Shown here piece by piece: positions 12,238-64,000 of a stretch of DNA of 64,000 bases; within the stretch, counting starts at the first letter, position 1, and every line of letters begins with the position of its first letter. The position numbers were made by a program, and so were the translations under genes. This DNA comes from Bugula neritina (lineage: Eukaryota > Animalia > Bryozoa): positions 2,884,662 to 2,948,661 of the forward strand of contig OZ037770.1 of assembly GCA_964035545.1 (NCBI GenBank). Reading direction: 5' to 3'. Under the pieces are notes generated by a model. That model was not told the DNA's origin. It did no database searches and saw only the letters and a program-made list of their open reading frames with translations.

Positions 12238-12919
12238 AATTATGTAGCTTGTTGACTAAGACTTCACAAAATATGACTTTAAATTTATTTTCAGCAATTC
12301 TGTTGTTCATTACAGTCACCACTAAAGTAGAAGACACCTGTTAGCACCTGTCATCAATACATTATTACAAGACCTTGCCTGTCACAGCCTGTCACAGCCT
12401 GTCACTACGTTAGTCACCACCTGAGCTGACATAGACAATCTTCCACAACTACCTTACAGAAGTAAGTTTATATTTGAAAGAGACAATTCTAATGCCTAAT
12501 TTGAAAAGAATTTCTAGTTTACTCACTGACTTTTCTTATGAATTTCATGCTTTGTTAGTTTTTCATTTTATATTATACAGTCACCACTCAAGTAGAAGAC
12601 ACCTGCGAGCACCTGTTATAGGGGCATTACTACCAAAGTCTGCCTGCCACAGCCTCACCATCCAAGTACAATACTATAACAGCAAAGCACACACCTGCTA
12701 TCACCTGCCACAAAACTGAAATAGACATAGAAGTGAGTTGTTTTATTTTACAAGTAGAAATTCTATTACCTTATGATAACATTTCACAGCATAGTCAAAC
12801 AAATTTAGCTACTACTTCCTGGCAAAAAACATAGAATTATAAAACACTTTGCTGCACTTTTTGCTTCTATGTCATTTCTCTTATTAACCAGTTGGTTTCT
12901 CTTATTAAACAAGTTATAG

Positions 12920-13085
12920 GTAATAATGGCACAAATGGAAAATTAAGTAAAATTGGCACATTTTCAAAATTAGCATTGTAGATATGAGTTGGGGGTTAGA
13001 CGTCTAGGATGAGGGGTTTGGAGGTTAGGGTTTGGGAAAATTTAACACCAGTGTGCGATTTTTACCTGTGCCATTTTTACCTAAA
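12920..13085. mobile_element. Short dispersed element with GGTAAWAATGGCAC / GTGCCATTTTTACC inverted motifs and GGGTT(A/T) tracts (copies also at ~17526-17780 and ~59780-60010)
   Basis: Three related copies share TAATGGCACAAATGGAA, a G/T telomere-like tract and TTACCTGTGCCA. Assignment as a Helentron/MITE-like non-autonomous element is inference. Confidence 0.6.
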
Positions 13086-14061
13086 ATCGGAACAGGTTCT
13101 TCTTCTATCAAAGTTCATTGAGTGTAGGGAAAGACACCATGCTTTTGATAGAGATGACACCACTTTAGTGTAACCTTAAAAAAATTGCCGCTGTTATGAA
13201 AGGCAATGATATGATGATTGCACTCCCACATTTTTAGATTCAGGTTATTTAGTGTAGCAAATATATCCACTAGGTATGTAGTATAAAGTTCATAGAAATT
13301 GACGTGCATGGCTGCTAAAAGTTGGCCTGTTAGTTTTTGCATATTTTTGACTTTTATTCGAAGTAACACAGAGAGCAGTTAGGGTAGAGTAATTTTTAAA
13401 CACACATTCATGTAGAAGTAAACTGAGATTGCAGAATATGGTTTAGTTAAATAGATGAACTAAGATGAAGATTTATAGATATACATATACACTTAACTTG
13501 CAAGAGCTCAAAACCGCCAACAAATTGCGTGAACTTTTCAAAATCCAAGTCCCCCCCCCCCTAAAATGTCCAAATTCCCCCCTTTGTGTGAACAGGGGGT
13601 TAGAGTAAACAGAAATTAGTGTCAGGTTCTGTGAATAGCATGTTAGATCAATGTTTATCTAAGGAGTTGTGAAACTGATCCTTTGTATTTATCATAATGA
13701 GCCAAGTCATGCTCAATGCTGAACTTATTTATGTTCAAAACTAAACTTCTGTTTATTTATTGCTAAACTTATAACCCCCCCCCCCCCTCGTTCATACATT
13801 GCCTTCGCACATTGCCGTACCATCACAGACAAAATGTTGCTGCTGTTACGTTTTGTCAACAGGCATTGCCCAAAACTAGTATAATATAAATGACTACACC
13901 TACATAATCGAGGTTCTTCTTAATTTTGATTGATTCTCCATGTTTTTTCCTATTTATTCAGCAACTTTTGATTGCAGAGTGTTATGAAAAAACCATAACT
14001 CTCCGAAATTTGTTATCTTGTTATTTAACCATGTTTGCTAAACAAACTGTCCTCGTAATCT

Positions 14062-14129
<68 letters not shown>

Positions 14130-14155
14130 CACAACTCTATAGCTTGTTGACTAAG

Positions 14156-14544
14156 TGTTGACACGATGCGTTTTTTACACATTTGTGACGTCCGAGAATA
14201 CCCGCTAGTGACCTGCCAAACACAGTTCGTGTGTTGCAAGTGCAAAAATTTATTAGCTAATGATGTTAGCGTTAAATTTTACTGCTCGCCTACAAGCGTT
14301 GGTTTTTTAAAATTACGTCATCGGCAAAGTTGCTTTAGTTATTATAAAAGCGGAAATGCAAATTATATGAAACTGTTTTAATTCAGTTCGCTAAAAGCTA
14401 AAACTTGAATTGAAATAAAAAAATGTGCTCCTAAATGATAATAAGCCCAAAGGCTTGCAGCTCCTCTTGCTCAGCGTGTTAGACGCATGAAAATTCCGCT
14501 CGTGACATCCAATTTTTGGGCTAAACGTGATTTCTTGCCCTACA
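14156..14544. mobile_element. 389-bp TG...CA insertion with 5-bp TSD (solo-LTR-like)
   Basis: CTAAG TSD at 14151-14155 and 14545-14549, termini TGTTG...CTACA, internal AATAAA. The duplicate copy at ~12251-12270 reads GTTGACTAAGACTTCAC (empty site). Confidence 0.75.
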
Positions 14545-17500
14545 CTAAGACTTCACAAAATATTACTTTAAATTTATTTTCAGCAATTCTGTTGTTCATT
14601 ACAGTCACCACTAAAGTAGAAGACACCTGTTAGCACCTGGCATCAATAGATTATTACAAGACCTTGCCTGTCACAGCCTGTCACCACGTTAGTCACCACC
14701 TGAGCTGACATAGACAATCTTCCACAACTACCTTACAGAAGTAAGTTTATATTTGAAAGAGACGTTTCTAATGCCTAATTTGAAAAGAATTTCTATTTTA
14801 CTCACTGCAATGGAACCCTTAGATTTTTCTTATGAATTTCATGCTTTGTTAGTTTTTCATTTTATATTATACAGTCACCACTCAACTAGAAGACACTTGC
14901 TAGCACCTGTCATAGGGGCATTACTACCAAAGTCTGCCGGTCACAGCCTCACCATCCAAGTACAATACTATAACAGCAAAGCACACACCTGCTTTCACCT
15001 GCCACAAAACTGAAATAGACATAGAAGTAAGTTGTTTTATTTTGTAAGTAGAAATTCTAATACCTTATATGATAACATTTCACAGCATAGTCAAATAAAT
15101 TTAACTACTGCTTCCAGGCTAAAGACATAAAAATGTATAAAAAATTTTGCTGCAATTTTTGCTTCTGTATCATTTCTTTTAATAACCAGTTGTGTTTTCA
15201 TTGCAAGTTTTTCTATAAAAATGATTGGAGAAACAAGCTATGGTGTAGTAATTGCTTTGCTTTTTACCAGATCATTTAAAGTATCTTTGGACCTAATATT
15301 ATTATTTTACAGCCACAATATTGCAATATCTAAAATTTACTGTTATTTAGACACTACCACAACAGAACCCACCTGCTATCACCTGTCACAAAGTTAACTC
15401 TACCTCAGCAGACATAGGCAATTCGCCTTTAATAATTTGAAGTAAGTTTCTTTAAAAAATGGAAATTCTAATATGTCTTATAGTAAGATTTCACAACTTA
15501 ATGAAATGAATGTTGCAATTGCTTAATCAAGCCAAAAAAAGAAATATCTCAAATGTCCAACTCTTTCAACAGATTATTAAAAAGGCAGCCTTGACCTTTA
15601 TTTAGTTTGAGTAAATATACTGCACATTTTGCTGCTAAGTCATTTTCCAGTAACTATTTAGGTTGTTATTACAAGTTTTTTTTATAAAACATGCTTATAT
15701 AGAAAGATCTATGGGGTTATAATCGTCTCACTTTGTAACTAATTATTTGAAGTTTCTTATAAAGAAAGAAGTTTTGCAGTGTAGCAATTATCTTGTTTTT
15801 AGCACACTATTTGAAGTGTCTCAGGTTTCTATGTGATATTTATTTATGCATTGCTGATGCTGTTAACTCTAAGCATTATCTTATTATTTAGACGCAACAA
15901 AACCCACCTGCTATCACCTGTCTCAAAGTCAATTACTGCTTGAACAAACACAGCTCTTCAATTATCCAGTAAGTTTCTCTCTTTTAATAGTTTAATATCC
16001 AATAATAAAACGTTACCATCTAGTTATTAGTGTGCTTAGTCCCTATTGATATGATGAAAGCAGTTAGTTGTATAAACATCAGGATTGTAGCCTAAACTTT
16101 CCATTTCCCTTGTCTATTCTGATATCAATCAAAAATTAAATTTTGATGAATGAAATATATGATTGGAAACACTTTTAACAGAGTTTTTCTTATGGGTGAA
16201 CTTTTACTTCTCAGTAATAGTCACTAAATACAGTTTCTATCATGAACAATAGACTCAGTATTGGAGAAACAAGCTATGGTGTAATAATTGTTTTGCTTTT
16301 TACCAGATCATTTGAATTATCTTTGGACTTTGTAATATTATTTTACAGTCACAATACTGCATTATCTACATATTAATTTGTTATTTAGACACTACCACAA
16401 CAGAATCCACCTGCTATCACCTGTCACAAAGTTGACTCTACCTCAGCTGACATAGACCATCCTCTTTCAATAATTCAAAGTAAGTTTATTTTAAGAATGG
16501 AATTCTAATATTTAATGATAAAAATTCACAGCTCAGTCTAATAAATTTGGCATCTACTTTTAAGCAAAAAAAATGAGAAAAGCTCAAATGTAAAACTATT
16601 TTATCAGATTATTAAAAATACTGCATTGACTTTTATTTAGTTTGAGTATATATAATTTTTCTCTGCTGACCTGCTGCGCATTTTGCTACTGTGTCATTTT
16701 CTAGTATTAACCAGTTAGGTTTTTATTACAAGTTTTTTTTATATAAAATATGCTTATAAAGAAGGCTTATATGTAGTTGCAGTTGTCTTACTTTTTACCA
16801 TTTAAAGCTTCTTAGCCTCCTGTATAATTAATTATATAATCACAATGCTGCTACTCTAAGCAAATATTCTAAGCAATATTCTAAAATTTAGACACTATAC
16901 CAGCAGAGAACTTACCTGCTCCCACCTGTCACAAAGTATATGACTGCCTGGCAAACAAAACAGCTCTTCAATTATTCAGTAAGTCTCTCTCTTTTGATAG
17001 TGTAATACCTAATAATAAAATGCTACAATCCAGTTAGTAGTTTCTTTTTAAGGTGACTAAATAATTAGTTGTAAAAATATCAGGCTTGTGGCATAAAATT
17101 TTCATTTTCGCTCGTTTAAGAAATGAAGGAAGTATGATTGGAAACACAATTAACTGACAGCGTTTTTTACTCATAACATAAAAACATGACATAATAATGA
17201 CTGAGGACAGTTTTTCTTATTCACAAAGGAACATATGCTGTTAAAACACACCTGAGCCAAGTCTTCAGAAATTACTCTTTAAAATTTGAATTATTTCAGC
17301 ATAATCAGTTGTGGACATACATTAGTGCACTCAACACTATTATTATTAGAAACCTATGGTTGCTATGATTTTGTTTACAAATACTTATACATATGTAAAC
17401 AATGCAAACACCAATTATATATGAGTGACTATTTGTTTGGCATTTGTTTCCTTTATATTAAACATATTTACTGACATCTCATATTATACTGCATAGTTTG

Positions 17501-18199
17501 AGTTTGCTGGTACAAAATGATTTTTGGTAAAAATGGCAGCTAAAAATAGCGCTAGTAATGCTGGCACAAGTGAAAATGGCACAAATGGAACAGTAGGTAA
17601 AAGTGGCACATTTTAATTATTGAGGTTTGGGGTGGGTGATTAGAGATTTAGAATGAGGGTTTAGGTTTGGGGTTTTAGTTTAGGGTTTGGGTAAATTTAA
17701 CATCAGTGTGTCATTTTGACCTACTTTTTCATTAGTGCCATTATCAGTTGTGCTGTTATTACCTGTGCCATTTTTTATGGTTTATACTATTTTAATGGCC
17801 AGCGGAAGTATAACCCCCCCTTCCCCCCCCCCGTGTCCCCTACAAAACATAATGAAATAGTTTATAACCAGAAACGGCAACTCTCAGTCATTCTGTCTCC
17901 ACATGCAGCATCACCATTAATTAAGGCGGCCAGGAAGGCGTGATCTTATTGCCAACCAATAAGGGGCAAGCTTTTGTATATAAACAGCACCTTCCACCGC
18001 CTATAGACACATTCCAATAGTACGAGTAGCTAACACTATAACCGAGTTGTTTGCTAAAAGAATGAATTTTGACAAAGTGTGTGATGGAAATGCGCAATTT
18101 AATGCACCGCTTGAATTTTGTTAAGAAGTTGAATTACTATTTATCTCTTTGCAGAGACATGTATAATAACTTACTCACTTATCTTGTAGACAGTAAGTA

Positions 18200-21100
18200 A
18201 TGGAGGGCTATAAAGACATTGGGAAGTTGGATGAGTTGACAGAGAAATACCAGAATGAGGCAAGAGATTCAAAGGGTGACTGGGTACCTTACCTTAAGGT
18301 GTGTATAGGTGACTGATTAGTGTATATACTTACTACTTGAGTCTCAAAATTGTTTGTGATAGGTATGTATAATGAATATAATGAATACTGTGGTATTTTA
18401 TTTAGGCTCATGGGTTGGCCAACAGATGTCTTGCCAGAGAATTCACAAAAGAAAGACAGCGTAAAGTCTATGATATAGAAGATAGCTGGTACAAAGGTAG
18501 GCATCCACTTACATATGAGGAACATGAGCAGCAAACAACCAAACACTTACAACTACTCAGAGATTACAGAGAAGAAAGTAAATATGAGTTTGACTCTATT
18601 GATACAAAGCATTTAAACCTTGACAGTTACCACCCAAATGATCAACTGTCTTCCTTTTCTGATACTGTATTTAAGCTAAGTCAAAAGTGTAGTAACCGAT
18701 TCATTTCAGTCTGTGCGTCCATTATGCAGTCAAGTGTTGATAATCTCAGTAAGTTAGGTTTGGAGGTTCCTTGTTCTTTTGCTGTGATTGCATTGGGTTC
18801 TGTTGCTCGTGGTACAGCCACTCCTTACTCTGACTTGGAATATGCTTTCATTGTGGAGTCTGACAGTCACATGGACTACTTTACTAAGCTAGCTGTTGAT
18901 AGTTACTTTAGGATAGGGAACATGGGAGAATCGCCCTTGAAAACCTTTGATATTACCGAAATAGACAAGCCCTACAATGACGACGTGACTGTTGGATTTC
19001 ACATTGATGGCATATCAAAGAAAGCAGGGAACATCCCTACTGGAAGAGGTGATGGTGCTAAGAACTTGATCCTGATGCCGCAGCAGTTAGCCGATGTGTA
19101 TAGGGAGGCGTTGTGTTCACCAGCTGGTGACACAGCAGATATTGGTGACATTCTCTCTTCTTCAGTGTTGGTTTATTCTCACAAAGGTGGTGATGGTCTT
19201 TATGAAACAGTGAAAGAAAGTTTTCATAATGTCTTAGCAGAAAAGAGCTCAAGCACATTGCTAATAGAGAAGCGATTGGCAGTGTTGGAATCTGATGTGA
19301 ATACGTATAACTTCCAACCTAGTTTTGAGTCATTTGGGCCTCCAGACAACACCCAGCTTGAGGTGAAGTCCAAATTATTTCGCTACCCAACACTTTTAGT
19401 TGATCATCTCCGAATGCTGTTAGGTTTCCCTGAAACAAAACCTGTTGCAGTAAATAAGAAACTGAAAGAATGTGGGTTTATAGATGATGCACAGTGTTTC
19501 AGACTAAACCTAGTGTCAGCTTTAGCTATATACATAAGAACAGCAGCTTGTATTCAGCTACAATCTCAACAAGATAAATTTTCACTGTATCCTGCAGCGA
19601 AATCAATCAGAAAAGTTTATTGCTTATCGCCTGATATTTTCATCCTGATGATCTATACAATTGTTCCTTTCAAATTGTGCATTGCCAAAAATTTGGTTTC
19701 ATTAACTGGCTTTGACACAACAGAAAAGGTTGATGTGATGAAGCATTTACTAAGCAATTTAAATGTGCAGAGTTCATCTTTTATGGTAAAAGCTGAAGCT
19801 GAGTACTTCTGTGGATCCTATGAACAGGCAATAAAAACTATTAAAACTAACTGTGGTGAAGAAATATTTGCTGAGATACCTGATTCATTTGCAAAGACTG
19901 TAAAAAAAACCGTCAACCAAAACAAATCAGAAACATCAAGGTTGTTGAGTAGGAGCTCAGAGGAAGTAAACACTTCTCAGCAACTTGTCGAACTGGCAGC
20001 CTATTTGTTATATTCTTCACAAAATTTCCAGCTTTCTTTAAAATATTTTACTTGGCTAGCAGAAAATTCTAAAGAAACTCCAATTGATGTGTTGAAGTGG
20101 AAGATTTTGGCCACAGATTGTGCTAACAAACTTCACAACTATACGGATGTATTTTCACTGCTTGGAGATGTTTACTCTACTCTAAAGACCAAGTTTAACA
20201 TGAGTAAAGGGGAAACTCTGTTCAGGTTTGTAAGAAAGATGTCTACAAGCTCTGAAGTTCCAGATGAAGACCAGCGATGGTTTGAAATCACTGCACAAGC
20301 TTTCAGAGTCCTCAGTGAAGCATGTAAAAACACAAAAAACTACGTACAAGCAGAGGAAATGGCCAATGCTGCGCTCACAGTTTTTGACAGGCTGCACTCA
20401 GTAGACAAACAGGAAAGACTTGATAGTCATTACATTGAGCTGATAGTATCATTAGCTTTAATACATTCAGAGAAAGGAGAGCATGGCAGAGGTATACAGT
20501 ATCTGAATCAGTACCTTGATGAGTTGATAGAGCTTCACACTGACTGTGTTGATCACCCAGATGTTGCAATACTACTGAGAGGGTTGGGACTAATTTATGA
20601 AAATATTGAAGACTATGAAATGTCTTTGCATTTCTATAGCAGAGCTTTGTCTATGACAGAGAACCTGTACACCACAACTCATCATGGCAGTGTTGCTCAG
20701 TGTTATAGAGATGTGGCAGCTCTGGAAGTCAAAAGGTCAAACTATGATGCAGCACTGAAGAATTATCAGACAGCTAGACACATATATGATAGCATAGAAG
20801 CAGGCAATCATGAAAAAGCTAGTCTACTGGTAGAAGTGGGACTCCTTTACAGTCTTATGGGAGATTATGACTCGGCCCTTTCAAGTCTCAAATCAGCTCT
20901 TCAGATTTCCCAGGCTACAGCAGAGACCACCCACATAGACATTGCAGACATACACTCTGCTTATGGTAGAGTATATAGTGAGATGGGAAAGGAAAAGCTT
21001 GCACTCAAATATCATGCAATGGCTTTAGAAATGACTAAAAACATATTTAATGAGATTAAGGACATCCCAATACTGGCCCAACTTCATGGAGAAATGGGGA

Positions 21101-22467
21101 AGTTTTCTATAGACTTAGGTACTAAGGCTAAACAATTGAATATAGAGAGAGCTAGTAGAGAGGTGAAAGGTGTTCATCCTGATATAGCTTCATGTTATCT
21201 CCAAGTTGGTGGAGTGTATCGAGATATGTGTCTTTATGATCAGGCTCTGCTTTATATGAACAGGTCATGTGACATGTATATTGCTGTACATGGGAAGACA
21301 AATCATGTAGATATAGCTCGTGCTTATAGTGAGCTTGGTACTGTGTATTACAGTATGGGTGAATATAGCAAGGCACTAGAATACTATACTAAGTCATTAG
21401 ATATGGAGCTAGCTATCTATGGCAGTGAGGCTACACATGCAGACATTGCTACTTCATATAACAATATTGGTCTTGTGTATAAGAGCATGGGTGAATATAG
21501 CAAGGCACTAGAATACCATACTAAGTCACTAGATATGTGCATAGCTATCTATGGCAGTGAGGCTACACATGCACACATTGCTACTTCATATAGCAATATT
21601 GGTCTTGTGTATGACAACATGGGTGAATATAGCAAGGCACTAGAATACCATACTAAGTCACTAGATATGTACATAGCTATCTATGGCAGTGAGGCTACAC
21701 ATGCAAGTATTGCTACTTCTTATAACAATATTGGTCTTGTGTATGACAACATGGGTGAATATAGCAAGGCACTAGAATACCATACTAAGTCACTAGATAT
21801 GTACATAGCTATCTATGGCAGTGAGGCTACACATGCAAGTATTGCTACTTCTTATAGCAATATTGGTAGTGTGTATAACAACATGGGTGAATATAGCAAG
21901 GCACTAGAATACCATACTAAGTCATTAGATATGGAGCTAGCTGTCTATGGCAGTGAGGCTACACATGCAGACATTGCTACTTCATATAGCAATATTGGTA
22001 GTGTGTATTACAACATGGGTGAATATAGCAAGGCACTAGAATACTATACTAAGTCATTAGATATGGAGCTAGTTGTCTATGGCAGTGAGGCTACACATTC
22101 AAGTATTGCTACTTCTTTTAACAATATTGGTAGAGTGTATGACAACATGAGTGAATATAGCAAGGCACTAGAATACCATACTAAGTCATTAGATATGATG
22201 CTAGCTGTCTATGGCAGTGAGGCTACACATGCAGACATTGCTACTTCTTATAATAATATTGGTTTTGTGTATACCCACATGAGTGAATATAGCAAGGCAC
22301 TAGAATACTATGAAAAGTGTCTAGTGATGGAGTTAGCTGTCTATGGCAGTGAGGCTACACATCCACACATTGCTAGTTCTTATAAACACATCAGTATTGC
22401 ATATAAGAAAATGGGTGAATATGGAAAAGCACAGGAGTACCAGCTGAAAGCAGATGCTATAAGCTGA
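18200..22467 (+). CDS. Nucleotidyltransferase (GlnD/DUF294-like pol-beta fold + helical substrate-binding domain) - TPR repeat protein, copy 1 (~1386 aa, 2 coding exons)
   Basis: Exon 18200-18298 (MEGYKDIG...VPYLK, GT donor) joins in frame to 18406-22467 (TTTAG acceptor; contains the 1350-aa ORF). NTase motif FAVIALGSVARGTATPYSDLEYAFIV (hGS-x9-D-h-E), then LEVKSKLFRYP helical domain, degenerate TPRs and a C-terminal 44-aa TPR array. Confidence 0.92.
21301..22440 (+). repeat. Coding tandem repeat, 132-bp unit (44-aa TPR), ~8.5 copies
   Basis: ATG(G/A)GTGAATAT recurs at 21355, 21487, 21619, 21751, 21883, 22015, 22147, 22279 and 22411, an exact 132-bp period. Confidence 0.97.
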
Positions 22468-23602
22468 GAAGCTGTTCTATATAAGATACCAGTATTTATA
22501 TACAGGACCTCCCACTCTGTGTGTTACTCATCTTCCTATTAACTAGACTCTAGTCTCCCTGTACAGAACTCAGACTACTCTCTGTACAGAACTCAGACTA
22601 CTCTCTCTACTATGACTCATCTCTAGAACATTCTGGTATTTTCTAGAAGCTACAGTCTCTCTGTTTCTATGCTCATGTTAATAATACACTCAGTTTACTC
22701 AGGTCAAGTCTATGACGTAGTGTTACAGTGACTCATAGTTCAAAGGTCATTTACCAGGTGTATTCCTGTATACAGTCTGTCTCAGAGGGTATATTGTGGT
22801 CTTTCTTTCTTCCTCTCCTTGTGAAATATCCAGCTCTAGTTTGTTAGTATATAAATGTTTCTTCTATAGTCAGAGTTTATTGGTTGTTTTTTCTCTCAAT
22901 TAAGTGGTCACAACTCCGGATTATCACTATAGACTCGCTATACATACATTTGTATACATTATGTTTGTATAAACTATATTTGTATATATTATATTTGTTT
23001 ATTTGATGATTGTATATTTTTTTGTTTGTGAAAACCACTTCACATCGCATTCAATAATGTGAATTCGATCATTTATATATTAGAACTTTTCACATTTTGC
23101 ATTCTTTATTTCACTATATGTTAAGCAGTAATGTGATTTAGTAGCAAATTTGTTTATTTATTACTGATTTCAATCAATTTTTGTTGAAAATTACTGTATA
23201 TTTTTCTGTAACCAATTGTTTATTTTATTGTAAATTTCTGCACATTCTATTGTAAATTGCTGTATATTTTGTATCATTTGTCATATTTGACAACAGGTTT
23301 TATTTACAATATTATACTTTTTCATTTATTCATTATTCCAGAATATATAAACTCAGAAACATATATTGACTATCATTTTCTCCCCCCCCTTATTTAATGC
23401 CCTATTCACTATTTTTATTGAAGAATATGCAAATTTAGAAACACATTTATTCTAGAGAATTCTTGCTTGAATATGCTCAGTACTAACTAGTTTTAATATA
23501 TAACTAAGGCTAGTTGTCATTGAAAGTTTGACTTTAATATTATTGGGAAACTTCATCACTACATAAGAGTAGAGAATATAAATCAGTGTAACTTCAGTAT
23601 AA

Positions 23603-23946
23603 GCCTAGGGCCACACGGCGCGTATTTTCGCATGCGAAAATTGAAATCACAAGTAGCAAAGGTGTCCACTGCGTGCGTTGAGAAAACATTCGCACTTGTC
23701 GCTCTGCATTTTCAACGCAAGTGCGAATCGTCTCTGTCGACGTCACCTAATTGGCTGGTAGTTTTTCGGCAAGCCCATTTTCTTTATTTTAGTGCTACAT
23801 TCCAGTAAATTGCGTTTTATTGAAAGCGAGTGCGATTTAAAAATGAAAGCTTTATTTATCACGCATCACTGACGCTACAGTGGACACTTTTGCTACTTGT
23901 GATTTCAATTTTCGCATGCGAAAATACGCACCGTTTGGCCCTAGGC
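23603..23946. mobile_element. PIF/Harbinger-type (Tourist-like) MITE
   Basis: ~70-bp TIR GCCTAGGGCCACACGG...CCGTTTGGCCCTAGGC with TAA TSD on both sides (23600-23602, 23947-23949). Confidence 0.88.
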
Positions 23947-24228
23947 TAATAGTCTATACATAGCGCTGAGACAGTCAACACACACATAAAATAAGATAAT
24001 TATCCAATCAACATCTACAATATGACTATCTCAGTATAACTGTTTCTCATTCAATTCTGACATTTCTGTTCTCTTCCTGTTTATTTTATCTCCTCTTCCT
24101 GTTTATTTTCTCTCCTCTTCCTGTTTATTTTCTCTCCTCTTTCTGTTTATTTTCTTCCCTTCTCCAAAGTCATTACATTATCTCACCTTGTCTCTAGATA
24201 TGGCTAAAGCAATACATGGTGACAATAC

Positions 24229-24580
24229 TGTAGTGAGTAGTGCAAGTACAAATACAGGAATCGCCCTCTCCCTACTCTTGGAATACTTAGACTCTTATGT
24301 AGCAACCAATTAGCAGCTCCGGAAGATATGCTTCCGATTCACGTGACACTTCCCGGGTTATTAACATTATATCACGTTGTTGTAAGCGGAGGCTTGTAGT
24401 AGTAACATGTGTTAGTAGTTGACTCTTGTATAGGATAATTTGATGTGATGTTTGGTTTATGCTTTATTGTGGATAATAAATATAATTACTCGACAGCTAC
24501 CTTAGTAATTGATAACAGAATAACCAGCTAACTATACGCAAGTAAATAACTCACGCTCAGTAATTGCACAAATTACTACA
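24229..24580 (+). repeat. 5' LTR of element 1
   Basis: Identical by eye to 29136-29487; TG...CA ends. Confidence 0.97.
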
Positions 24581-24581
24581 G

Positions 24582-24599
24582 TGGTGGCAGCGGTGGGAT
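24582..24599 (+). promoter_or_regulatory. Primer-binding site (tRNA-Leu)
   Basis: TGGTGGCAGCGGTGGGAT is complementary to the ...ATCCCACCGCTGCCA-CCA 3' end of animal tRNA-Leu and lies 1 nt after the LTR. Confidence 0.9.
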
Positions 24600-24615
24600 C
24601 TTGCGTATAGCAGTC

Positions 24616-25566
24616 ATGGCAGAAGACGGCACGGAGCTACCCATTCCACTGAATGAAGGTGAGAGAGATAATGTTGATATACCTATGGAACCAGTGGTGT
24701 TAGATGAAGAAGTGAGAATTCTTAAAGAGTATGGTGAAGACAGATACCGGATGAAGGCGCCCACCTTCGCAGGCGAAGAAGCAGTGGAGCAGTTTATCCA
24801 AATATTCCAAGATGTGATGGAGATTTCAGAGTGGCCGCCAAGGGTGGCGCTGCTCAAGCTCAGGATGGCGCTGACGGGCAAAGCTAAGCCGTACGGAGCG
24901 GGACCTGACATAGACGGAATCTTTGCTTCCCTGCGGGCCCGTTTTGGCATCTCTCCCATAGATGCGCGGGCCCGTCTACAGAGGATGCGGCGTGATCCTC
25001 ACACGTCACTAGAAGAGCACGCTGCCACGGTGTACCCACTAGCGCAGATTGCATTCCGCGATCTGCCTCCGGTACACCGTGAGAGGTATACTTATGATGC
25101 CTTCGTGCAGTCCATCAACGACTTGGGGCTCCACCATCAACTCCAAGCGAGGGGAGTCACCACAGTCGAAGATGCACTTGCGGTGGGAGAAGCCTACCTC
25201 TTGGCGACTCATATGCACCGCAACCGCGTGGCCTCCCGCCAGGTGACCACGGAGCACTCTACTGCTCACGCCGACTTAGACGCGGAACCCTCCGCGGTGG
25301 CTAATGTGAACCAGATGTCACTAGCGTCAAAAATCTCACAGATGACTGACATGCTAGATAAACTGGTCACCACATTAGCTTCCCCAAGCCAGGTAGATAC
25401 TGCCCGTGAGCCTAGCGGGCCGCAGGTACAATCACCAGGCATGGGGCACCACTTCTGCTGGGAATGCGGAAGGCCAGGACATTTCCAGAGAGACTGCCCT
25501 CAGCTCCCACAAGGGTTAAACTACCACGGCCCGCAGATGTTCCCACCTCCTGCGGGCCGTCTGTGA
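24616..25566 (+). CDS. gag: Gag (capsid + CCHC knuckle), element 1
   Basis: ATG at 24616; KAPTFAGEEAVEQFI; CWECGRPGHFQRDC zinc knuckle; colinear with element 2 gag. Confidence 0.92.
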   Translation: MAEDGTELPIPLNEGERDNVDIPMEPVVLDEEVRILKEYGEDRYRMKAPTFAGEEAVEQFIQIFQDVMEISEWPPRVALLKLRMALTGKAKPYGAGPDIDGIFASLRARFGISPIDARARLQRMRRDPHTSLEEHAATVYPLAQIAFRDLPPVHRERYTYDAFVQSINDLGLHHQLQARGVTTVEDALAVGEAYLLATHMHRNRVASRQVTTEHSTAHADLDAEPSAVANVNQMSLASKISQMTDMLDKLVTTLASPSQVDTAREPSGPQVQSPGMGHHFCWECGRPGHFQRDCPQLPQGLNYHGPQMFPPPAGRL

Positions 25567-27620
25567 ATCACCCAGGGAGGCCCGCGCGTCTGTCGCCCCG
25601 CTGGGCGCCGCGCGGAGATGCTGTGAAGTGGCGACCCCCGCGGCAAGTAGGCTCCAGCCACTCGCCACCTGGGTCCTCTACGCCACTCCGGCACCAACAC
25701 GGAACCGGCAGACGGTTGACCACAGAGCCTGCGAGGGAAACGGTACAGGCGCCGCAAGGCGTACCGCCCCAACCTCGGCAGCTGGTCAATAGTCGCCGCC
25801 AACCGTGGACCCCTCGACCCACAGCGAGGGAGGTGCAACCACGGCACACACAATTGCAGCCACACGGAAGTAGCTACTTCCTACCAGGAAAGCTAGCCGG
25901 CAAGCCTGCCAACTTCCTCCTGGACTCAGGCTGCACCACCAACCTCCTTAGCCGTCAGTTCTTTGACACCCTCAGCGCTAAGGTCAAGGACAGGTTGGCA
26001 CCGTATGAGGGGGATCATGGCACCCTGGCAGACGGGTCATGCATTCCCTTCTACGGCATTATTGAGCTAACTGGTTACGTCCGTAACCAGGCCATCCAAG
26101 AGACGTTTATCGTCGGGCAGCTCAACGAGGATGCTATCCTCGGGATGCCATTCTTACAACGACACGGTTGTCGCATCGATTTCAGTAAATCTGCGATGAT
26201 CATGGGCGACAAGGAGCTCGCTTGTGTCGATAAGTTTGGTCGTCCTTTAGCGGGAGCAGTGCAGGTAGTACGGAGCTGTACTATACCAGGCCACTCCCGG
26301 GCTACCGTCTGCTGCAAGGTAGACGGTGGCCAAACCTCTAAGTTGGGAGTTGTCGAAAGTACGCACTCGAGAGTCCAACTTGCCCATAGCTTTAGCCGGC
26401 TTACGGGACAAGGAGAGATCTCAGTGCAGTGTGTCAACCCCTTCTCAGAGACAGTAGACCTACCACCCAGATCCATGCTGGGTCGCTTCCATCCTGTCCA
26501 GGAGGAAGCCATTGGGCCGTCGTCGGGAGCTACGACGGAAGGTCCTCAGCAGAGCCCGTCTCGAGGGCGGAGGACCGTCCCAACCCACGCCTCCCCTTCT
26601 CCAGGGACGCGTGGCTGCACAGGCAACGGGAAGCGCCAGGCTATGGCTAGGTTGCCACATGGGTACAGTGAGGCGTTCAGCCACACAGACCACGGAGCCC
26701 GCCTAAATAGAGCAGGCTGCCGTGAGGTACCACGGGCGGCGAGGACCGCCCCTGCTCAGCTACTCCAACAGAGGGCTGACACGCCCCCGGAGGCTGCCCA
26801 GAGCCTCTGCGCCAAACCTGTATGGGCTGGTAACGTTAGGGAGCTGCCGAAGCTCCAGGAATGCCTTCCTGGGGTGGTAGCCGACGTGTACCGAGCGAAA
26901 CAGGAAGGGCGACGACCCAGTAGTACACAACGGCGACAGGGATGCGCCGAGTTACGGCTGTACTGTCAACGTTGGAGCTCTCTGCGGGTCGGGCCAGATG
27001 GTCTGCTAACCATGACCTTGGCCGCCAACAGCAGACAGCCAGCCAGGAAGAGGGTTGTCTGCCCAGTTGCCATCCGCCGGAAGTTGATACAAGACACCCA
27101 CGAGGAGACTCACGGAGGAGTCCAAGGGGTGGTCACCAAGCTACAACTCCGGTGGTACTGGCCTAACATGGAACGGGATATCCGACGCAGAGTGAGACGG
27201 TGCAAAGTCTGCCAGACCAACAAGCATAGCCGTCTCCCTGGTGAAGCGGGGCGGCAGACGCATTGTGCGAGAAGGTCTCGGCAGGCGGAGACTGTCAACC
27301 TGGCCGGAAACACCTCCATGACACGTCAGGAAGACTTGGCGAGGCGAGAAAGGCTACTTCCGTCCTTGAAAGTGCGCCCACCGCCCCCAACGTCAAGCCT
27401 GCCATCATCACCACTTCCGGAACCAGAAACAGGTCCGGAAGTGCAAAAACCCCCCGTGGGAGGGGCTCCGCAAGGAGATACCAACATAGGACCAGGACCA
27501 CACACTAGGCAACTTCCAGCGTGTCTCAGAGACTGTGTACGTGACCGCGGTATAAGCGGCAGTAACGAAAGTCTAGAGGCCTCGCATGAAAAAACAGGCA
27601 AAGAGCCGTGGGAGTTGTGA
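25464..27620 (+). CDS. pol: Internally deleted Pol: aspartic protease + remnants + integrase HHCC, no RT/RNase H/DDE core
   Basis: The FLLDSGCTTN protease is intact. Alignment to element 2 jumps from the pre-RT region (REVPRAARTAP) to the post-RH region (QLLQQRAD...), and from the IN start (TVNLAGNTSMT) to the IN tail (RQEDLARRER). Confidence 0.88.
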   Translation: MRKARTFPERLPSAPTRVKLPRPADVPTSCGPSVNHPGRPARLSPRWAPRGDAVKWRPPRQVGSSHSPPGSSTPLRHQHGTGRRLTTEPARETVQAPQGVPPQPRQLVNSRRQPWTPRPTAREVQPRHTQLQPHGSSYFLPGKLAGKPANFLLDSGCTTNLLSRQFFDTLSAKVKDRLAPYEGDHGTLADGSCIPFYGIIELTGYVRNQAIQETFIVGQLNEDAILGMPFLQRHGCRIDFSKSAMIMGDKELACVDKFGRPLAGAVQVVRSCTIPGHSRATVCCKVDGGQTSKLGVVESTHSRVQLAHSFSRLTGQGEISVQCVNPFSETVDLPPRSMLGRFHPVQEEAIGPSSGATTEGPQQSPSRGRRTVPTHASPSPGTRGCTGNGKRQAMARLPHGYSEAFSHTDHGARLNRAGCREVPRAARTAPAQLLQQRADTPPEAAQSLCAKPVWAGNVRELPKLQECLPGVVADVYRAKQEGRRPSSTQRRQGCAELRLYCQRWSSLRVGPDGLLTMTLAANSRQPARKRVVCPVAIRRKLIQDTHEETHGGVQGVVTKLQLRWYWPNMERDIRRRVRRCKVCQTNKHSRLPGEAGRQTHCARRSRQAETVNLAGNTSMTRQEDLARRERLLPSLKVRPPPPTSSLPSSPLPEPETGPEVQKPPVGGAPQGDTNIGPGPHTRQLPACLRDCVRDRGISGSNESLEASHEKTGKEPWEL
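25515..25580 (+). promoter_or_regulatory. -1 ribosomal frameshift signal (G_TTA_AAC + stem-loop/pseudoknot)
   Basis: Heptamer 25515-25521, 5-nt spacer, stem CGGCCCGCAG/CTGCGGGCCG. Pol is in the -1 frame of gag. The signal is conserved in element 2. Confidence 0.8.
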
Positions 27621-28078
27621 TCACCACAAAAATCTCAACTTTTGCCTCGGCGGAATCTCACACGAGATTCATCCGCTGGAAGTAAAAAGCCCTAGTCACG
27701 TTTCACAACCACGCTGTCCGGTCTTTTCCTATGTTGATGCAGTCGAGAGTAGACGTGCCAGTAAACAGTAATCATTTACCACTCTCATTCCAAAATGTCT
27801 TACTATTCTGGATCGAAGGGTGTTAATTATGTTTTTGGTACGATAACTAGACTGCATCAGTCAGCTTAGCTACACTAGCTAGCTGGAGATTCGATAATGA
27901 TAAACAGTGGTGGGAATACACGTCGACTTTGATTTTAAATAATCTGCCATAGCGAGTGTGTTCTCCATCAACTATTCATTAGCCTGAATCTCACGAGTGT
28001 AACTGAACAGAGTACCGGTCAGGCTGTACACGCCGACGGTGCCTCAGTGTATAATCTTTAACACTGCTACTCTTTCAG

Positions 28079-28845
28079 ATCACACTCGAGTGACCACCTC
28101 CCGGTCACGGGACCAGCCAACCTCTCTGTCTATGGAAGAAGAGCCTGTAATGGAGAATGGCATACCCGTAGTGCTCCGCCGACGACACCGTTGGGTGTCA
28201 CCCACGACAGAGAGGAGAATTGAAGAAGCCTGGGGACCCAGTGGACCACACCGAACCTGCCAGGTCTGCTTTGAGGAGTGCCCGTCACACCGCTCCCTGC
28301 GTTTACATGTAGACGCCCATTTCCTACTCCACTTCTGTCCCTGCGGGTTCCACGACGTCTACCCGTATCCCGTGACAGTACATAAGCTAAGCTGCTTCGC
28401 CGGAGAGAACCACACTGTTGATGAAGACAGTTTCCCCCTATACCTGGATGCCATCAAGCCAGTCATCAGGAAGGCTATCACCCTGGCCGCACTAACGTCA
28501 GGGTTTCACGTACTGCTACTATCTGCCCGCCATAAGTCCCCTATGGTTCAGGGCCCACCTCCTACCCCCGTCAACCCTAGCAACACCCCAGAAGTAGAAG
28601 AAACAACAATATCCCCTCTAACGGAGACCACTACAACCCCACCAAGGCCTAGCCAGCTGGCTAACGTAGAAGAGCGGCTTATGAGACTACAAGCCGAGTT
28701 CACACAACTTGCCCCTGACCTGCTGGATACGACGACAGGTCTATACCAGTTGAAGGACTCAGTGGGGCGACTGAAGAGGCGGCTACGGGCCCGACAGGCT
28801 CGACACAGAGCATGGTCGCTACAAGAATCAGAGTCCAACCAATGA
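28079..28845 (+). CDS. ORF3 exon 2 of element 1: C2H2 + C2HC zinc fingers, Pro-rich linker, coiled coil (spliced to gag leader 24616-24658; 269 aa)
   Basis: CQVC-x12-H-x3-H, CPC-x12-H-x3-C and C-terminal heptads. TCTTTCAG acceptor at 28077-28078. Homologue present in element 2. Confidence 0.85.
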
Positions 28846-29135
28846 GAATGCCTGGGGTAGGCACCTTCGTTGAGCGATACTCGTTTGGAATGTGACGAGC
28901 GCTCCGACATTGGCCCGCGTGCTGGTAAGCACCCTCTCTCTTAATAGCTGACTAGATGTGTGTGATCGATCACCCTGTTGTCTTCTAATGTAAACGTTGT
29001 CGTGCTCAACTATTTCTTTTCTTACTCTTTGTGGGTTTACTTATGTATGTTTTTCTTTTTGGATTATTGTATGGTTTTTCATTATGTTTTTTTATTGTGT
29101 TATCAGAAAGTAGGGCTTTCTGCTGGGGGGGACGG

Positions 29136-29487
29136 TGTAGTGAGTAGTGCAAGTACAAATACAGGAATCGCCCTCTCCCTACTCTTGGAATACTTAGACT
29201 CTTATGTAGCAACCAATTAGCAGCTCCGGAAGATATGCTTCCGATTCACGTGACACTTCCCGGGTTATTAACATTATATCACGTTGTTGTAAGCGGAGGC
29301 TTGTAGTAGTAACATGTGTTAGTAGTTGACTCTTGTATAGGATAATTTGATGTGATGTTTGGTTTATGCTTTATTGTGGATAATAAATATAATTACTCGA
29401 CAGCTACCTTAGTAATTGATAACAGAATAACCAGCTAACTATACGCAAGTAAATAACTCACGCTCAGTAATTGCACAAATTACTACA
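29136..29487 (+). repeat. 3' LTR of element 1
   Basis: Preceded by PPT GGGGGGGACGG (29125-29135) and followed by the ATAC TSD. Confidence 0.97.
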
Positions 29488-30659
29488 ATACCACTCACAT
29501 AGCTATAGCACACACCTACCATAGACTGGGTAGACTGTATCATAACACAGGTCAATATACACACTCAGTACACTGCTATAACATGGCCCTGGTACAGAGA
29601 GATAGGTGTAATACTGCTCATCTCCCTCTATATACAGCTGTGTTAGTCAGTTTCTCTCAGACTATGATCTCGTTGTCAGACTACAAACACGCTAAGGGTC
29701 TCCTACTACTCGCTCTCAAACATTCACCTACTGACTACTGTAAGGATACTCAGGCTGGTATCTGTCAATTCTTAGGATAGTGTTGTCTCCACTTACATCA
29801 GTACAGGAAGTGTTGGAAATATTTTATATGACGCCCTAAAATAACTTCAAATTGAAAACATAAATAAAAAATTAAAAAATGAAGTTATCCTCCTTTAACA
29901 AAGATAATTAAAATACAGCAAATAAAATAATTATTTAACAGATTACTGGAAATATAAAAAGTTGGTAAATTATTTTTAGTTTCCTGAAATAATTAAACTG
30001 TGAAAAAGTTTCAGTTTGAGCCAATGCAGATTAGGAGACTCAGTTGCATAGTATTTGCTTAGAAAATATCCAAGTAATATTTTAAAGTAGCACCCAACGT
30101 GTAAATGATATATTCCATTTATAAAAAACCATATTAATGCTGCAAGTTTCCATAAACCGCAGTCTCTTCTACTGGAGTTGTCGTTCTTTAAAAGTAGAGT
30201 GTATTTTCTGTTTCAGCCATTCATGCATAGTGACAGGGGGGTACTTAGAACGCCCCACTAGACATTCTATTAGTGTGGTCTGGTCTGGAGTAGCAAAGAA
30301 TGGGATAGAAACTCTGTCAGCCTCCTGCAGGTGCATGTCATCTGACACCAACACTCGGTGCTTCTGAAAAACATAAACAGTTTTCAAGGAACAAAGAAAA
30401 TAGTTCATGAAAATACTGCATTCTACAAATTTTAAGTCAAATTTGACTTTCTTCCATCAGAGTTTTTCTACAAAAATGCAACAAAGCAAAGCATTAACTA
30501 TATTCACAGCAAAAATATTATGTTTATTACAGAGACAAGGTTACCAGTTGAGTAGCTTTTCAATAAAGTAACATAACCTGGTAGAACCTGCTTGCTGTGC
30601 TTTTTGTAACTATCAACTACTTAGCGTGACATCACTAGTTAGTATGACATCACAAGTTA

Positions 30660-30985
30660 GCCTAGGGCCACACGGTGCGTATTTTCGCATGCGAAAATTG
30701 AAATCACAAGTAGCGTCAGTGATGCGTGATAAATAAAGCTTTCATTTTTAAATCGCACTCGCTTTCAATAAAACGCAACTTACTGGAATGTAGCACTAAA
30801 ATAAAGAAATTGGGCTCGCTGAATAACTACCAGCCAGTTAGGTGACGACGACAGAGACGATTTGCACTTGCGTTGAAAATGCTGAGCGACAAGTGCGAAG
30901 GTTTTCTCAACGCGCACAGTGGACACCTTTGCTACTTGTGATTTCAATTTTCGCATACGAAAATACGCACCGTGTGGCCCTAGGC
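30660..30985. mobile_element. PIF/Harbinger-type MITE, second copy (inverted relative to 23603-23946)
   Basis: Same TIRs; TTA TSD (30657-30659, 30986-30988). Inserted in an 18-bp minisatellite within the last dioxygenase intron. Confidence 0.88.
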
Positions 30986-31247
30986 TTAGTGTGACATCAC
31001 TAGTTAATGTGACATCACTAGTTAGTATGACATCACTAGTTAATGTGACATCACTAGTTAGTATGACATCACTAGTTAGTGTGACATCACTAGTTAGTAT
31101 GACATCACTAGTTAGTGTGACATCACTAGTTAGTGTGACATCACTAGTTAGTGTGACATCTCTAGTTAGTATGACATCACTAGTTAGTGTGACATCACTA
31201 GTTGGTATGACATCACTAGTTTGTGTGACATCACTAGTTAGTATGAC
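30986..31247. repeat. 18-bp minisatellite (RTGACATCACTAGTTAGT)n
   Basis: About 14 copies here, plus about 2 copies at 30620-30659 on the other side of the MITE. Confidence 0.95.
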
Positions 31248-33501: not shown

Positions 33502-33806
33502 TGTTAAGATTTTCAGTTTTAGGGTTGATGTGCTATCCAGAGAGTCTATTTATTTACTATAGAACTGCACCAGGATAAGTCGAGTGAACGAGTATATTTT
33601 ACACACAACTATACATTATAAAAACGATACATTATTTCCAAACAAGTTACACATCTAATCTATTTCACACTCTAGCTTCGACTGAGTTAGCAGCGGGAAA
33701 CTACAATTGCTGCTAACTATCAACTACGCTAATTGGCTATCCATTGTTCCGGGTCAATTACGCGACCCTACATGTTGTGCTGCTGGTAGTTCCACGAACC
33801 ACCACA
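33502..33806 (-). repeat. 3' LTR of element 2
   Basis: Identical by eye to 40702-41006 (offset 7200). Confidence 0.97.
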
Positions 33807-34093
33807 CCGCCCCCACCAGCAGAAAGCCATCTTTCTGATATATATATATAAAAACATTCAATAGTAATTGCATACATCAGTGGACAAAATAATACATAAT
33901 ATACAGGAAGAGACATAATAATAGGCAGAGTCATTATAACGATCCGTTGCATACAATTGGCCAGCTGTAGATAGACGAGGAATACTAGCTAGCTGTAGTA
34001 TTAGACAAGGAATAACCTGTCTAGCAGTTAAACATTTGCACGATCTTGGTTCCTCACAAGATGTGAAGTTGCGGAGTATTCTGGGTAGCCTAA

Positions 34094-34881: not shown

Positions 34882-35424
34882 CTGAAAAAGTTTCAACAGT
34901 GTTAATACAGTACACTGCTGTGTTGTCAGCTTGAACAGCTTGGCAACTCCTAATTCAGTTACCTCGTAGAGATTTATGGTAGTGAATAGTCAGATAGAAC
35001 ACGTATTGCAATGAGATTATAAAAATCTCTAAGTCAAACTGAGTTCTTACTACGGTATTTCACTAACCTATCTCCAGCTCGATTGACTCAGTGAGTCAGA
35101 GCTGAGCGATGCAATCTAGTTTCGTATTAAGATATAGTTAACTCACCCCACGATCTGTTGTCGTAAGACATACTGAATGTGTGAAATGGTTTGAACTACT
35201 GCTTAGAAACACGTCTACTCCTGACTGCATCAGCGTATGAAAAGATCGAGCAACGTGGTTGGGGTGCGTGATTAAGACTTTGTGCACCCGGCGGATGAAT
35301 TTTATTTCTATTTCCGCCGATGCAAAAGTTGATATTTCCGTGGTGTTGACAACTCCCACATTTGCTCGATTCTTTTCTCGTACGGTTTTCCCCTAGACTT
35401 TCATGCGTGCCGCTTTTAACGCAG

Positions 35425-40670: not shown

Positions 40671-40682
40671 CTTGGATGCACT

Positions 40683-40700
40683 ATCCCACCGCTGCCACCA
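40683..40700 (-). promoter_or_regulatory. Primer-binding site (tRNA-Leu)
   Basis: Same 18-mer as in element 1. Confidence 0.9.
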
Positions 40701-40701
40701 C

Positions 40702-62707: not shown

Positions 62708-64000
62708 ATGGAGAGCTATAGAGACATTGGGAAGTTGGATGAGTTGACAGAGAAATACCAGAATGAGGCAAGAGATTCAAAGGGTGACTGGGTACCTTAC
62801 CTTAAGGTGTGTATAGGTGACTGATTAATTTACATACTTAATACTTGCTACTTGTGATAGGCATGTATAATGAATATAATGAATACTGTGGTATTGTATT
62901 TAGGCTCATGGGTTGGCCAACAGATGTCTTGCCAGAGAATGGACCGCAGAAAGACAGCGTAAAGTCTATGATATAGAAGAAAGCTGGTACAAAGGTAGGC
63001 ATCCACTTACATATGAGGAACATGAGCAGCAAACAACCAAACACTTACAGCTACTCAGAGAGTACAGAGATGAAACTAAATATGACTTTAAATCTATTGA
63101 TACAAAGCACTTAAACCTTGACAGTTACCCTTCAAAGGATCAACTGTCTTTCTTTTCTGATACTGTATTTAAACTAAGTCAGAAATGTAGTAACCAATTG
63201 ATTTCAGTCTGTGCGTCCATTATGCAGTCAAGTGTTGATAATCTTAGTAAGTCAGGTTTGGAGGTTCCTTGTTCTTTTGCTGTGATTGCATTGGGTTCTG
63301 TTGCTCGTGGTACAGCCACTCCTTACTCTGACTTAGAATATGCCTTCATTGTGGAGTCTGACAGTCACATGGACTACTTTACTAAATTAGCTGTTGATAG
63401 TTACTTTAGGATAGGGAACATGGGGGAATCTCCCTTGAAAACCTTTGATATTACTGAGATAGACAAGTCCTACAATGATGATGTGACTGTTGGGTTTCAC
63501 ATTGATGGCATATCAAAGAAAGCAGGGAATATCCCTACTGGAAGGGGTGATGGTGCTAAGAACTTGATCTTGATGCCAGATCAGTTAACCTGTGTGTATA
63601 GGGAAGCGTTGTGTTCACCTGCTAGTGACACAGCAGATATTGGTGACATTCTCTCTTCTTCAGTGTTGGTTTATTCCCACAAAAGTGGTGATGCTCTTTT
63701 TGAAACGGTGAAAGAAAATTTTCATAAAATCTTAGCAGAAGAAAGCTCAAGCGCATTGCTAATAAAAAAGCGATTAGCAGTGTTGGGAAATGATGTGAAT
63801 ACGTATAACTTTCAACCTAGTTTTGAGTCTTTTGGGCCTCCAGACAACACCCAGCTTAAAGTAAAGTCTGAATTATTTCGCTACCCAACACTTTTAGTTG
63901 ATCATCTGCGACTGCTCTTAGCTTTCTCTGAAACAAAACCTAGGGCGGTAATTGAGAAACTGAAAGAGTGTGGGTTTATAGATGATGCACAATGTTTCAG
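62708..64000 (+). CDS. Nucleotidyltransferase(-TPR) protein, copy 2 (runs off the window)
   Basis: Exon 62708-62806 plus an exon from 62904 that stays open to 64000. Same intron position and identical LGSVARGTATPYSDLEY motif as copy 1. The TPR part lies outside the window. Confidence 0.92.

Follow-up and report, generated by a model that had tools for sequence, protein, structure and literature searches.

A spliced, tandemly duplicated bryozoan gene joining a predicted DrrA/GlnE-type nucleotidyltransferase to groove-variable TPRs: a candidate protein AMPylase with a putative diversifying target selector

What might an animal do with a nucleotidyltransferase (NTase) that carries its own long array of tetratricopeptide repeats (TPRs)? 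The question is raised by a plus-strand gene at positions 18200 to 22467 of a 64,000-nucleotide stretch of the genome of Bugula neritina (Bryozoa) (assembly GCA_964035545.1, contig OZ037770.1, positions 2,884,662 to 2,948,661; hereafter, the window). An earlier note, made from the sequence alone, had proposed a TPR-gated NTase involved in innate immunity or allorecognition. We find that this is an expressed, spliced, and tandemly duplicated animal gene. As to its function, our leading but still tentative reading, which draws on sequence comparison and structural models, is that it encodes a cytosolic protein nucleoside monophosphate (NMP) transferase, probably one that adds AMP, whose diversifying TPR groove would select a fast-changing target, probably in defense.

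The first part of the answer lies in the N-terminal module, residues 1 to 440 (18406..19725; residue numbers here begin with exon 2 [protein P0001], and 33 must be added for the full protein), which comprises a helical N-terminal part, a pol-beta core, and a HEPN-like helical lobe. An AlphaFold2 model built on 119 sequences reached a predicted local distance difference test score (pLDDT) of 94 over residues 1 to 500, and when it was searched with Foldseek, only four chains were returned at an E value of ≤0.001, all of them DrrA (2.5e-7 for DrrA with Rab8a) or the two GlnE domains. Within Foldseek's top 1000, the best structural match was DrrA (6yx5_B; Z 26.6, root mean square deviation [rmsd] 4.0, 319 aligned residues, model residues 1 to 439), followed by the GlnE domains (Z 21.3 and 20.6); all other proteins listed had a Z of 8.4 or less, including YutE (8.4), aminoglycoside NTases (6 to 8), HalB (6.2), and MNT (4 to 5). 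The helical lobe taken separately (model 283 to 440) matched DrrA 210 to 391 at Z 10.9 and YutE at Z 8.4. A 36-sequence profile likewise placed DrrA at the top by sequence (E 2.7e-13, covering both lobes; 6e-4 for the helical lobe alone); this profile was restricted to the module, a full-length profile being dominated by TPRs when compared with the PDB. Among family profiles, Pfam DUF294 was above its cutoff at residues 92 to 163 (26.9 bits versus 21; E 5e-6), SidM_N remained below its own (20.6 to 22.4 bits versus 27), and weak matches were obtained to the aminoglycoside NTases of NCBIfam and to GlnD profiles. The module is thus predicted to fold like DrrA/GlnE, in agreement with the GlnD/GlnE/DUF294-type fold and the helical partner domain that had been proposed from the sequence, the latter being visible in the model.

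The catalytic motif, G131-S132...D143-L-E145 (18796..18840), is intact and of the pol-beta type, as first described, fitting the class pattern G-[GS]-x9-13-[DE]-x-[DE], although its spacing is GS-x10-D-L-E (that is, G-x11-D-x-E) rather than x9. Conservation among relatives further points to D201 (19006-19008), a likely third acid, and to K321 and R326 (19366-19383): in 119 aligned relatives, D143 is kept in 119, E145 and D201 in 117 each, K321 in 115, and R326 in 112, and the catalytic columns are invariant in 36 of 36 rows, bacterial ones included. In DrrA, the corresponding motif is G98-x11-D110-x-D112, with D150 as the third acid (PMC7815794; this and the other papers cited below were available as partial text), and D201 is the likely counterpart of D150, the third metal-binding acid. 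The enzyme is very probably active, and its acceptor is probably a protein. As for an active HEPN RNase motif (R-x4-6-H), R378 is present and no His follows it in the window protein; a His lies at +4 to +7 in 50 of the 108 relatives that carry the R378-type Arg.

Past residue 440, only TPR families are matched. Residues 441 to 968 (19726..21309) form a divergent TPR-like helical solenoid, with matches to Pfam TPR families only and no strand, and are followed by eight conserved TPR units of 44 amino acids (132 nucleotides), ending at 22365, and a capping unit (together 21310..22467; period 132, 8.2 copies, 90% matches). The solenoid thus measures about 900 amino acids in all, of which the last 385 are the eight units and the cap, and TPR_12 was found in 12 stretches (E 4e-111), so that the many TPRs of the earlier note are confirmed. 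In a 1,200-residue model (pLDDT 82, predicted template modeling score 0.68), 35 helices and no strands were seen past residue 440. Neither Pfam, a check for Walker A motifs, nor the model revealed a NOD, NACHT, NB-ARC, or other globular domain in that region; no P-loop was found in the protein, and no signal peptide was seen. Lacking a NOD domain, a P-loop, and any strands past residue 440, the protein is not an NLR, despite the receptor-like architecture ascribed to it.

Next, we asked where the conserved repeats differ. The groove positions were taken beforehand from PMC1261162, which lists TPR positions 2, 5, 9, 12, 13, 33, and 34 as the variable concave face and positions 2, 5, 6, 9, 12, and 13 as ligand contacts, and the register was set by Pfam TPR_1, in which TPR position 1 corresponds to unit position 3. 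Although the units are 79 to 96% identical in DNA (units 2 to 7, 86 to 96%), their variation is uneven. Among 43 units from seven close proteins, TPR positions 12, 9, 13, 2, and 5 rank 2nd, 3rd, 4th, 6th, and 7th in entropy of 44 columns, and the groove positions 2, 5, 9, 12, and 13 average 2.71 bits versus 1.06 (p 1e-5; 2e-4 against the 28 noncore columns). Positions 5, 9, 12, and 13 are variable in the window gene itself, and position 2 is variable also across paralogues. For units 2 to 7, 2 to 8, and 1 to 8, respectively, amino-acid-changing diversity in the six contact columns is 0.22, 0.26, and 0.33, compared with 0.07 to 0.085 outside them and with silent diversities of 0.075, 0.109, and 0.127 (rough Fisher p for the contact-column excess, 0.008, 0.003, and 2e-6). 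This pattern suggests that the groove codons are under diversifying selection, and we consider it fairly likely that the repeats are a target selector under conflict. It also bears out the analogy drawn earlier with fungal NLR repeats, since the units are highly conserved and vary at groove positions. The number of units above the score used ranges from 3 to 8 among paralogues. Predicted as a complex, the enzyme module and the conserved repeats scored 0.25 (mark, 0.34).

That the gene belongs to the animal follows from its structure. The ATG at 18200, two codons downstream of an in-frame stop, lies in a first coding exon (18190..18298; 99 nucleotides of coding sequence, 33 amino acids) whose peptide matches the N termini of Watersipora proteins and upstream exons of related loci. 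A phase-0 GT-AG intron of 107 nucleotides (18299..18405) separates it from exon 2 (18406..22467), a single open exon of 4,062 nucleotides encoding 1,353 amino acids plus the stop, which brings the full protein to 1,386 amino acids (coding exons 18200-18298 and 18406-22467) and agrees with the earlier statement that nearly the whole gene sits in one exon of about 4 kb. We rejected a possible second intron at 18497 because homologues align across the site. The joint 18298>18406 occurs in transcript-type contigs of X4 and X12 (2 of 4 runs) and, in a second set, of X17 (1 of 4), and the joint 16978>18190 (GT..AG) in 3 of 4 runs (X10, X6, and X17); run X20, recorded as RNA, covers exon 2 without a splice joint. 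Because the runs, which were guessed to be RNA, may hold copies 88 to 99% like the window gene, splicing is proven for the subfamily rather than for this exact copy. Read differences (40 listed of 325; 25 silent, 15 changing) were a selected subset with paralogues mixed and were not used.

Upstream, transcript-type contigs define a multi-exon 5' leader (14876..16978, plus strand; exons at about 14876-15027, 15351-15441, 16389-16479, and 16892-16978), whose exons are covered and whose introns are not. It consists of tandemly duplicated exons of 90 to 150 nucleotides that share a short motif (window 12255-17039 and again 60.9 to 62.5 kb), with older copies further upstream at about 12.3 to 12.7 kb, and numerous alternative joints are seen in its transcript contigs, some of them reaching exons outside the window. 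No upstream open reading frame (ORF) runs across the leader exons, in which the frames close, and the leader is therefore likely noncoding. The last leader exon (16892-16978) contains an ATG that is conserved in the paralogue (about 62346-62432); the short ORF beginning there runs past the main ATG in another frame and could dampen translation of the main ORF.

The gene is one of several. On the same strand, a tandem paralogue begins at 62708 and is cut by the window end (62708..64000); it has the same two-exon start, intron, and motif, leader exons at about 61.9 to 62.4 kb, DUF294 above the cutoff, and 91.7% identity over 1,387 nucleotides. Between the two, the nonsynonymous rate (dN) is 0.057 and the synonymous rate (dS) 0.194 over 360 codons (dN/dS 0.29; Fisher p 6e-8), which shows, at the level of sequence, purifying selection on the enzyme module. 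A third copy is broken: what remains is the 3' end of a family member that is more distantly related (24167-24229 and 29487-29825, plus strand; tblastn of P0005, 95% over 21 amino acids and 73% over 113), interrupted by a long terminal repeat (LTR) retrotransposon and without the upstream part of that gene. Tandem duplication, as proposed earlier, is thus evident within the window.

More widely, a search with the module returned 833 clusters (50% identity) at an E of ≤0.001 and 93 at 1e-30, with details from the 150 matches listed. In the best 80 of 261 metagenome loci (26 to 40% protein identity), an AG stands at the same phase-0 position in 77, and a GT or GC donor was found in 40 of the 41 loci with a detectable first exon; of the 3 loci without the AG, one is cut, and in the other two the matches are poorly placed. 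This conservation implies that these are nuclear genes and that the long exon is old, and together with the multi-exon leader it argues against the recent retroposition that had been entertained. Among these 80 loci alone, at least 8 to 13 distinct copies are present in each of 7 of 11 assemblies. Named animal members come from Watersipora, Bugula, Owenia fusiformis, Branchiostoma spp., and Hydra vulgaris, with 38 to 40% identity to proteins of Watersipora subatra and 36 to 44% to others of B. neritina; bryozoans have many members of the family, which is present as well in an annelid, in lancelets, and in intracellular bacteria.

A narrow pattern run on 185,579 prokaryote genomes matched 29 loci: 9 in genomes labeled Chlamydiae, Rickettsiaceae, or Amoebophilaceae, 13 in Cytophagales/Bacteroidota, of which the sampled rows group with Amoebophilaceae, and 7 in others. 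All five prokaryote proteins scanned whole carry TPR arrays, and P0140 combines F-box, DUF294, and TPR, the plan of Neochlamydia NEX2. Of 15 pattern matches in viral contigs, none was confirmed, and PADLOC gave weak matches only. Trees were built from chosen subsets of 76, 40, and 41 rows, in which unnamed rows were called animal by clade, an assumption. They place the window protein in a bryozoan-type clade (support, 99 to 100), joined by Owenia in the careful tree (93/93) and lying outside the main symbiont clade; two SidM_N members and two Chlamydiae-type rows are the deepest branches when used as root. By the approximately unbiased (AU) test, animals without Hydra may form a single clade (p-AU 0.51 and 0.25), whereas one including Hydra is rejected (p-AU 0.0006), the Hydra sequence nesting within Rickettsia (98/92). 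The nearest nonanimal kin are thus bacterial, as the earlier note expected; the range of the fold makes an old bacterial origin likely, a horizontal origin is plausible, and transfer may instead have run from animal to symbiont.

Some members of the wider family deserve mention in their own right. The Hydra vulgaris protein (P0191; 1,821 amino acids, on a 70.9-Mb contig) is an NTase-TPR-ankyrin protein that nests inside Rickettsia/Tisiphia and reflects either a recent transfer of its own or contamination of the assembly. The 1.06-Mb Cytophagales chromosome OY970075.1 encodes at least nine NTase-TPR genes (L088-L104) of 1,600 to 2,100 amino acids, with up to 25 conserved repeats. Finally, L108 and L109 are stand-alone proteins of 370 to 400 amino acids from a Pyrinomonadaceae and an unclassified genome; with L108 above the SidM_N cutoff, they appear to be SidM-like enzymes outside Legionella.

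Taken together, the Foldseek matches confined to DrrA and GlnE, the near-invariant catalytic columns, the dN/dS of 0.29, the groove-focused repeat variation, the many paralogues, the lack of a signal peptide and P-loop, and an architecture shared with host-directed proteins of intracellular bacteria are what leads us to a cytosolic NMP-transferase with a target-selecting groove. In such an enzyme, D143, E145, and D201 would bind Mg-ATP like D110, D112, and D150 of DrrA, and an NMP, most likely AMP from ATP, would be moved onto a protein hydroxyl, that of Tyr in the case of DrrA and GlnE. The repeats would be reshuffled by unequal crossing-over or conversion and then retuned at the groove, so that each paralogue might mark and disable a different fast-changing target, e.g., a protein of an intracellular invader. 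One may speculate further, although we regard this as rather doubtful, that marine invertebrates possess a NOD-free, one-chain receptor-enzyme AMPylase system, with an effector module shared with intracellular bacteria and TPR grooves reshuffled and selected like fungal NLR repeats, in which each copy recognizes a different invader or nonself protein and AMPylates either this protein or a host switch; the self/nonself machinery of colonial bryozoans might include such a system.

Several observations weigh against the proposal of a target-selecting AMPylase. On the side of the repeats, amino-acid-changing and silent diversity are equal over the whole repeat (0.109 and 0.109), a first, self-chosen set of columns showed no excess (0.29 versus 0.30), and the silent sites in the groove columns, three in number, are likewise elevated once the end units are counted in (0.15 to 0.27). 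The diversity counts moreover treat nonindependent repeat units as if they were independent; TPRs in general vary at these positions; and two further top-variable columns (unit positions 27 and 33) fall outside the groove set. The conserved repeats begin some 530 residues past the enzyme module, a gap that may fit sensing better than delivery of a substrate. On the side of the enzyme, identity to DrrA is only 15 to 16%, the column of DrrA D249, a named metal ligand (PMC8097203), is Thr/Ser in this family, and the fold class also acts on small molecules (aminoglycoside NTases, Z 6 to 8). Enzyme activity, substrate, and immune role are all matters of prediction.

The strongest alternative is the gated enzyme of the earlier note, in which the repeats restrain the enzyme and bind a nonself ligand, and the freed enzyme AMPylates a fixed host protein (e.g., a small GTPase), starting defense or rejection. 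Such an arrangement would account for an enzyme module that is conserved next to repeats that vary; fungal NLR sensors typically have high-identity repeats that vary at the groove (PMC4986451), and DrrA is allosterically activated (PMC7815794). However, the protein has no NACHT, NB-ARC, or other switch domain, and the TPRs of bacterial NEX2 proteins accompany F-boxes, where the repeats are taken as substrate pickers (PMC4209131). We therefore consider this alternative improbable, if worth keeping in view.

Alternatively, the protein could be a nucleotidyltransferase for proteins that was domesticated to serve an endogenous pathway, be it in development, larval settlement, or symbiont housekeeping, its copies and repeat variation arising merely from unstable tandem DNA. 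The patchy distribution of the family, its large lineage-specific expansions and birth-and-death remnants, and the concentration of variation on groove columns are hard to reconcile with this; the near equality of dN and dS over the whole repeat, the transcripts in several studies without known challenge, and a region rich in recent transposons and satellites speak for it. On balance, we find a nonimmune regulator unlikely.

Less likely still is that the TPRs switch a synthase of second messengers or oligonucleotides (cGAS, OAS, CD-NTase, or Hailong-like). Such an enzyme would belong to the same pol-beta superfamily, cGAS-like domains are joined to TPRs in oysters (PMC8195603), and a potential adenylyl cyclase is mentioned among NTase-HEPN fusions (PMC3710099), but the CD-NTases listed reach only Z 3.3 to 3.7 (rmsd 5.8 to 8.5; for cGAS and OAS, whose own chains are missing from the rows shown, the comparison is indirect) and HalB only 6.2, versus 26.6 for DrrA, with Foldseek E values of 0.25 or worse, and no Mab-21 or OAS Pfam match appeared at an E of up to 0.01. 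A cGAS-like reading, one of the options of the earlier note, is accordingly unlikely. We give very little weight to a small-molecule NTase that detoxifies symbiont or dietary compounds: although aminoglycoside NTases share the two-lobe plan (Z 6 to 8, weak NCBIfam matches), these matches are far weaker than those to protein-modifying enzymes, and 900 amino acids of diversifying TPRs would be left unexplained. Bacterial contamination or an inactive relic, for which one might cite the same architecture in bacteria and the animal-labeled Hydra relative within Rickettsia, is hardly credible given introns removed in transcripts and kept in 77 of 80 loci, a dN/dS of 0.29, low coding density, and LTR elements around the gene, and contamination in particular is refuted by the splice joints.

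The surroundings of the gene are rich in mobile and repetitive DNA. The LTR retrotransposon in the remnant copy (24229-29487) has 352-nucleotide LTRs (24229-24580 and 29136-29487) that are 100% identical and a 4-nucleotide target duplication; it inserted very recently and, having a short internal pol frame, is probably nonautonomous. A Ty3/gypsy-type element on the minus strand (33502-41006) has 305-nucleotide LTRs, also 100% identical, and a 1,482-amino-acid protease-reverse transcriptase-RNase H-integrase frame. Near one end of each element lies an extra ORF of about 280 amino acids (28003-28845 and 34094-34954). In addition, a 350-nucleotide element with inverted ends, resembling a miniature inverted-repeat transposable element, is present in two copies of opposite orientation (23600-23949 and 30657-30988; 91% identical), and satellite arrays lie between the gene copies (47008-47841, 51.0-52.6 kb, 53757-55466, and 60.1-60.7 kb), with periods that include 31 and 35 nucleotides.

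How much of this is new? The enzyme class and the NTase-TPR plan are already known from bacteria; what is gained here is a clade of bryozoan type, proof of splicing, the birth and death of tandem copies, and repeat variation centered on the groove. We found no description of the animal members in the literature: the text of PMC3710099, PMC8195603, and PMC3482391, as far as it was available, does not mention them, their supplements, which could list them, and subscription papers lying outside this coverage. FICD and SelO are the only animal AMPylases named in the available text of PMC8097203 and PMC12409994, with more expected. If our reading is true, bryozoans, an annelid, and lancelets would share a third class of animal AMPylases, a family with the DrrA/GlnE fold and intact active sites and an AMP-adding enzyme class so far undescribed in animals; animals would have retained and multiplied a module that intracellular bacteria use on their hosts, and NLR-like repeat diversification would occur without a NOD switch.

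How, then, does the protein compare with known systems? With DrrA/SidM of Legionella (6yx5, 3nku; PF20879) it shares the whole-domain fold, the G-x11-D-x-[DE] spacing, and a K-x4-R in the second lobe, but it is 15 to 16% identical, falls below the SidM_N cutoff, has Glu for the second Asp and Thr/Ser at D249, carries TPRs past residue 440 instead of a Rab guanine nucleotide exchange factor or phosphatidylinositol 4-phosphate-binding domain, and is encoded by an animal nuclear gene. Neochlamydia NEX2 and the DUF294-TPR proteins of Parachlamydiaceae, Rickettsiaceae, and Amoebophilaceae (PMC4209131) have in common with it the NTase, C-terminal TPRs, and paralogue expansion, and the bacterial DUF294-TPR proteins often have highly conserved repeats of 42 to 44 amino acids, as here (module identity, 20 to 29%). 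In contrast to NEX2, most members of which have an N-terminal F-box, the window protein has no F-box or OTU domain (only 33 amino acids precede exon 2), its NTase is N terminal, its gene is spliced, and it belongs to a separate, fully supported clade; any function of NEX2 is itself only putative. GlnE and GlnD (3k7d, 1v4a) have the same two-lobe NTase fold (Z 20.6 to 21.3), whereas the window protein is 9 to 13% identical, lacks the tandem AT/AR, HD, and ACT domains, and has the TPR fusion. Like the fungal NLR/HET proteins (PMC4986451), it has an N-terminal enzyme, C-terminal high-identity repeats, and variation on a predicted interaction surface, a degree of repeat conservation given there for 0.8% of metazoan repeats; unlike them, it has no NACHT or NB-ARC, and its effector type differs. 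FICD/HYPE and SelO share the proposed chemistry, and FICD likewise uses TPRs for substrate recognition, but their folds are unrelated (Fic and pseudokinase), and they are single-copy, endoplasmic reticulum or mitochondrial, and unexpanded (PMC8097203, PMC12409994). By these features, the window protein stands outside the DrrA/SidM, NEX2, NLR, and CD-NTase families.

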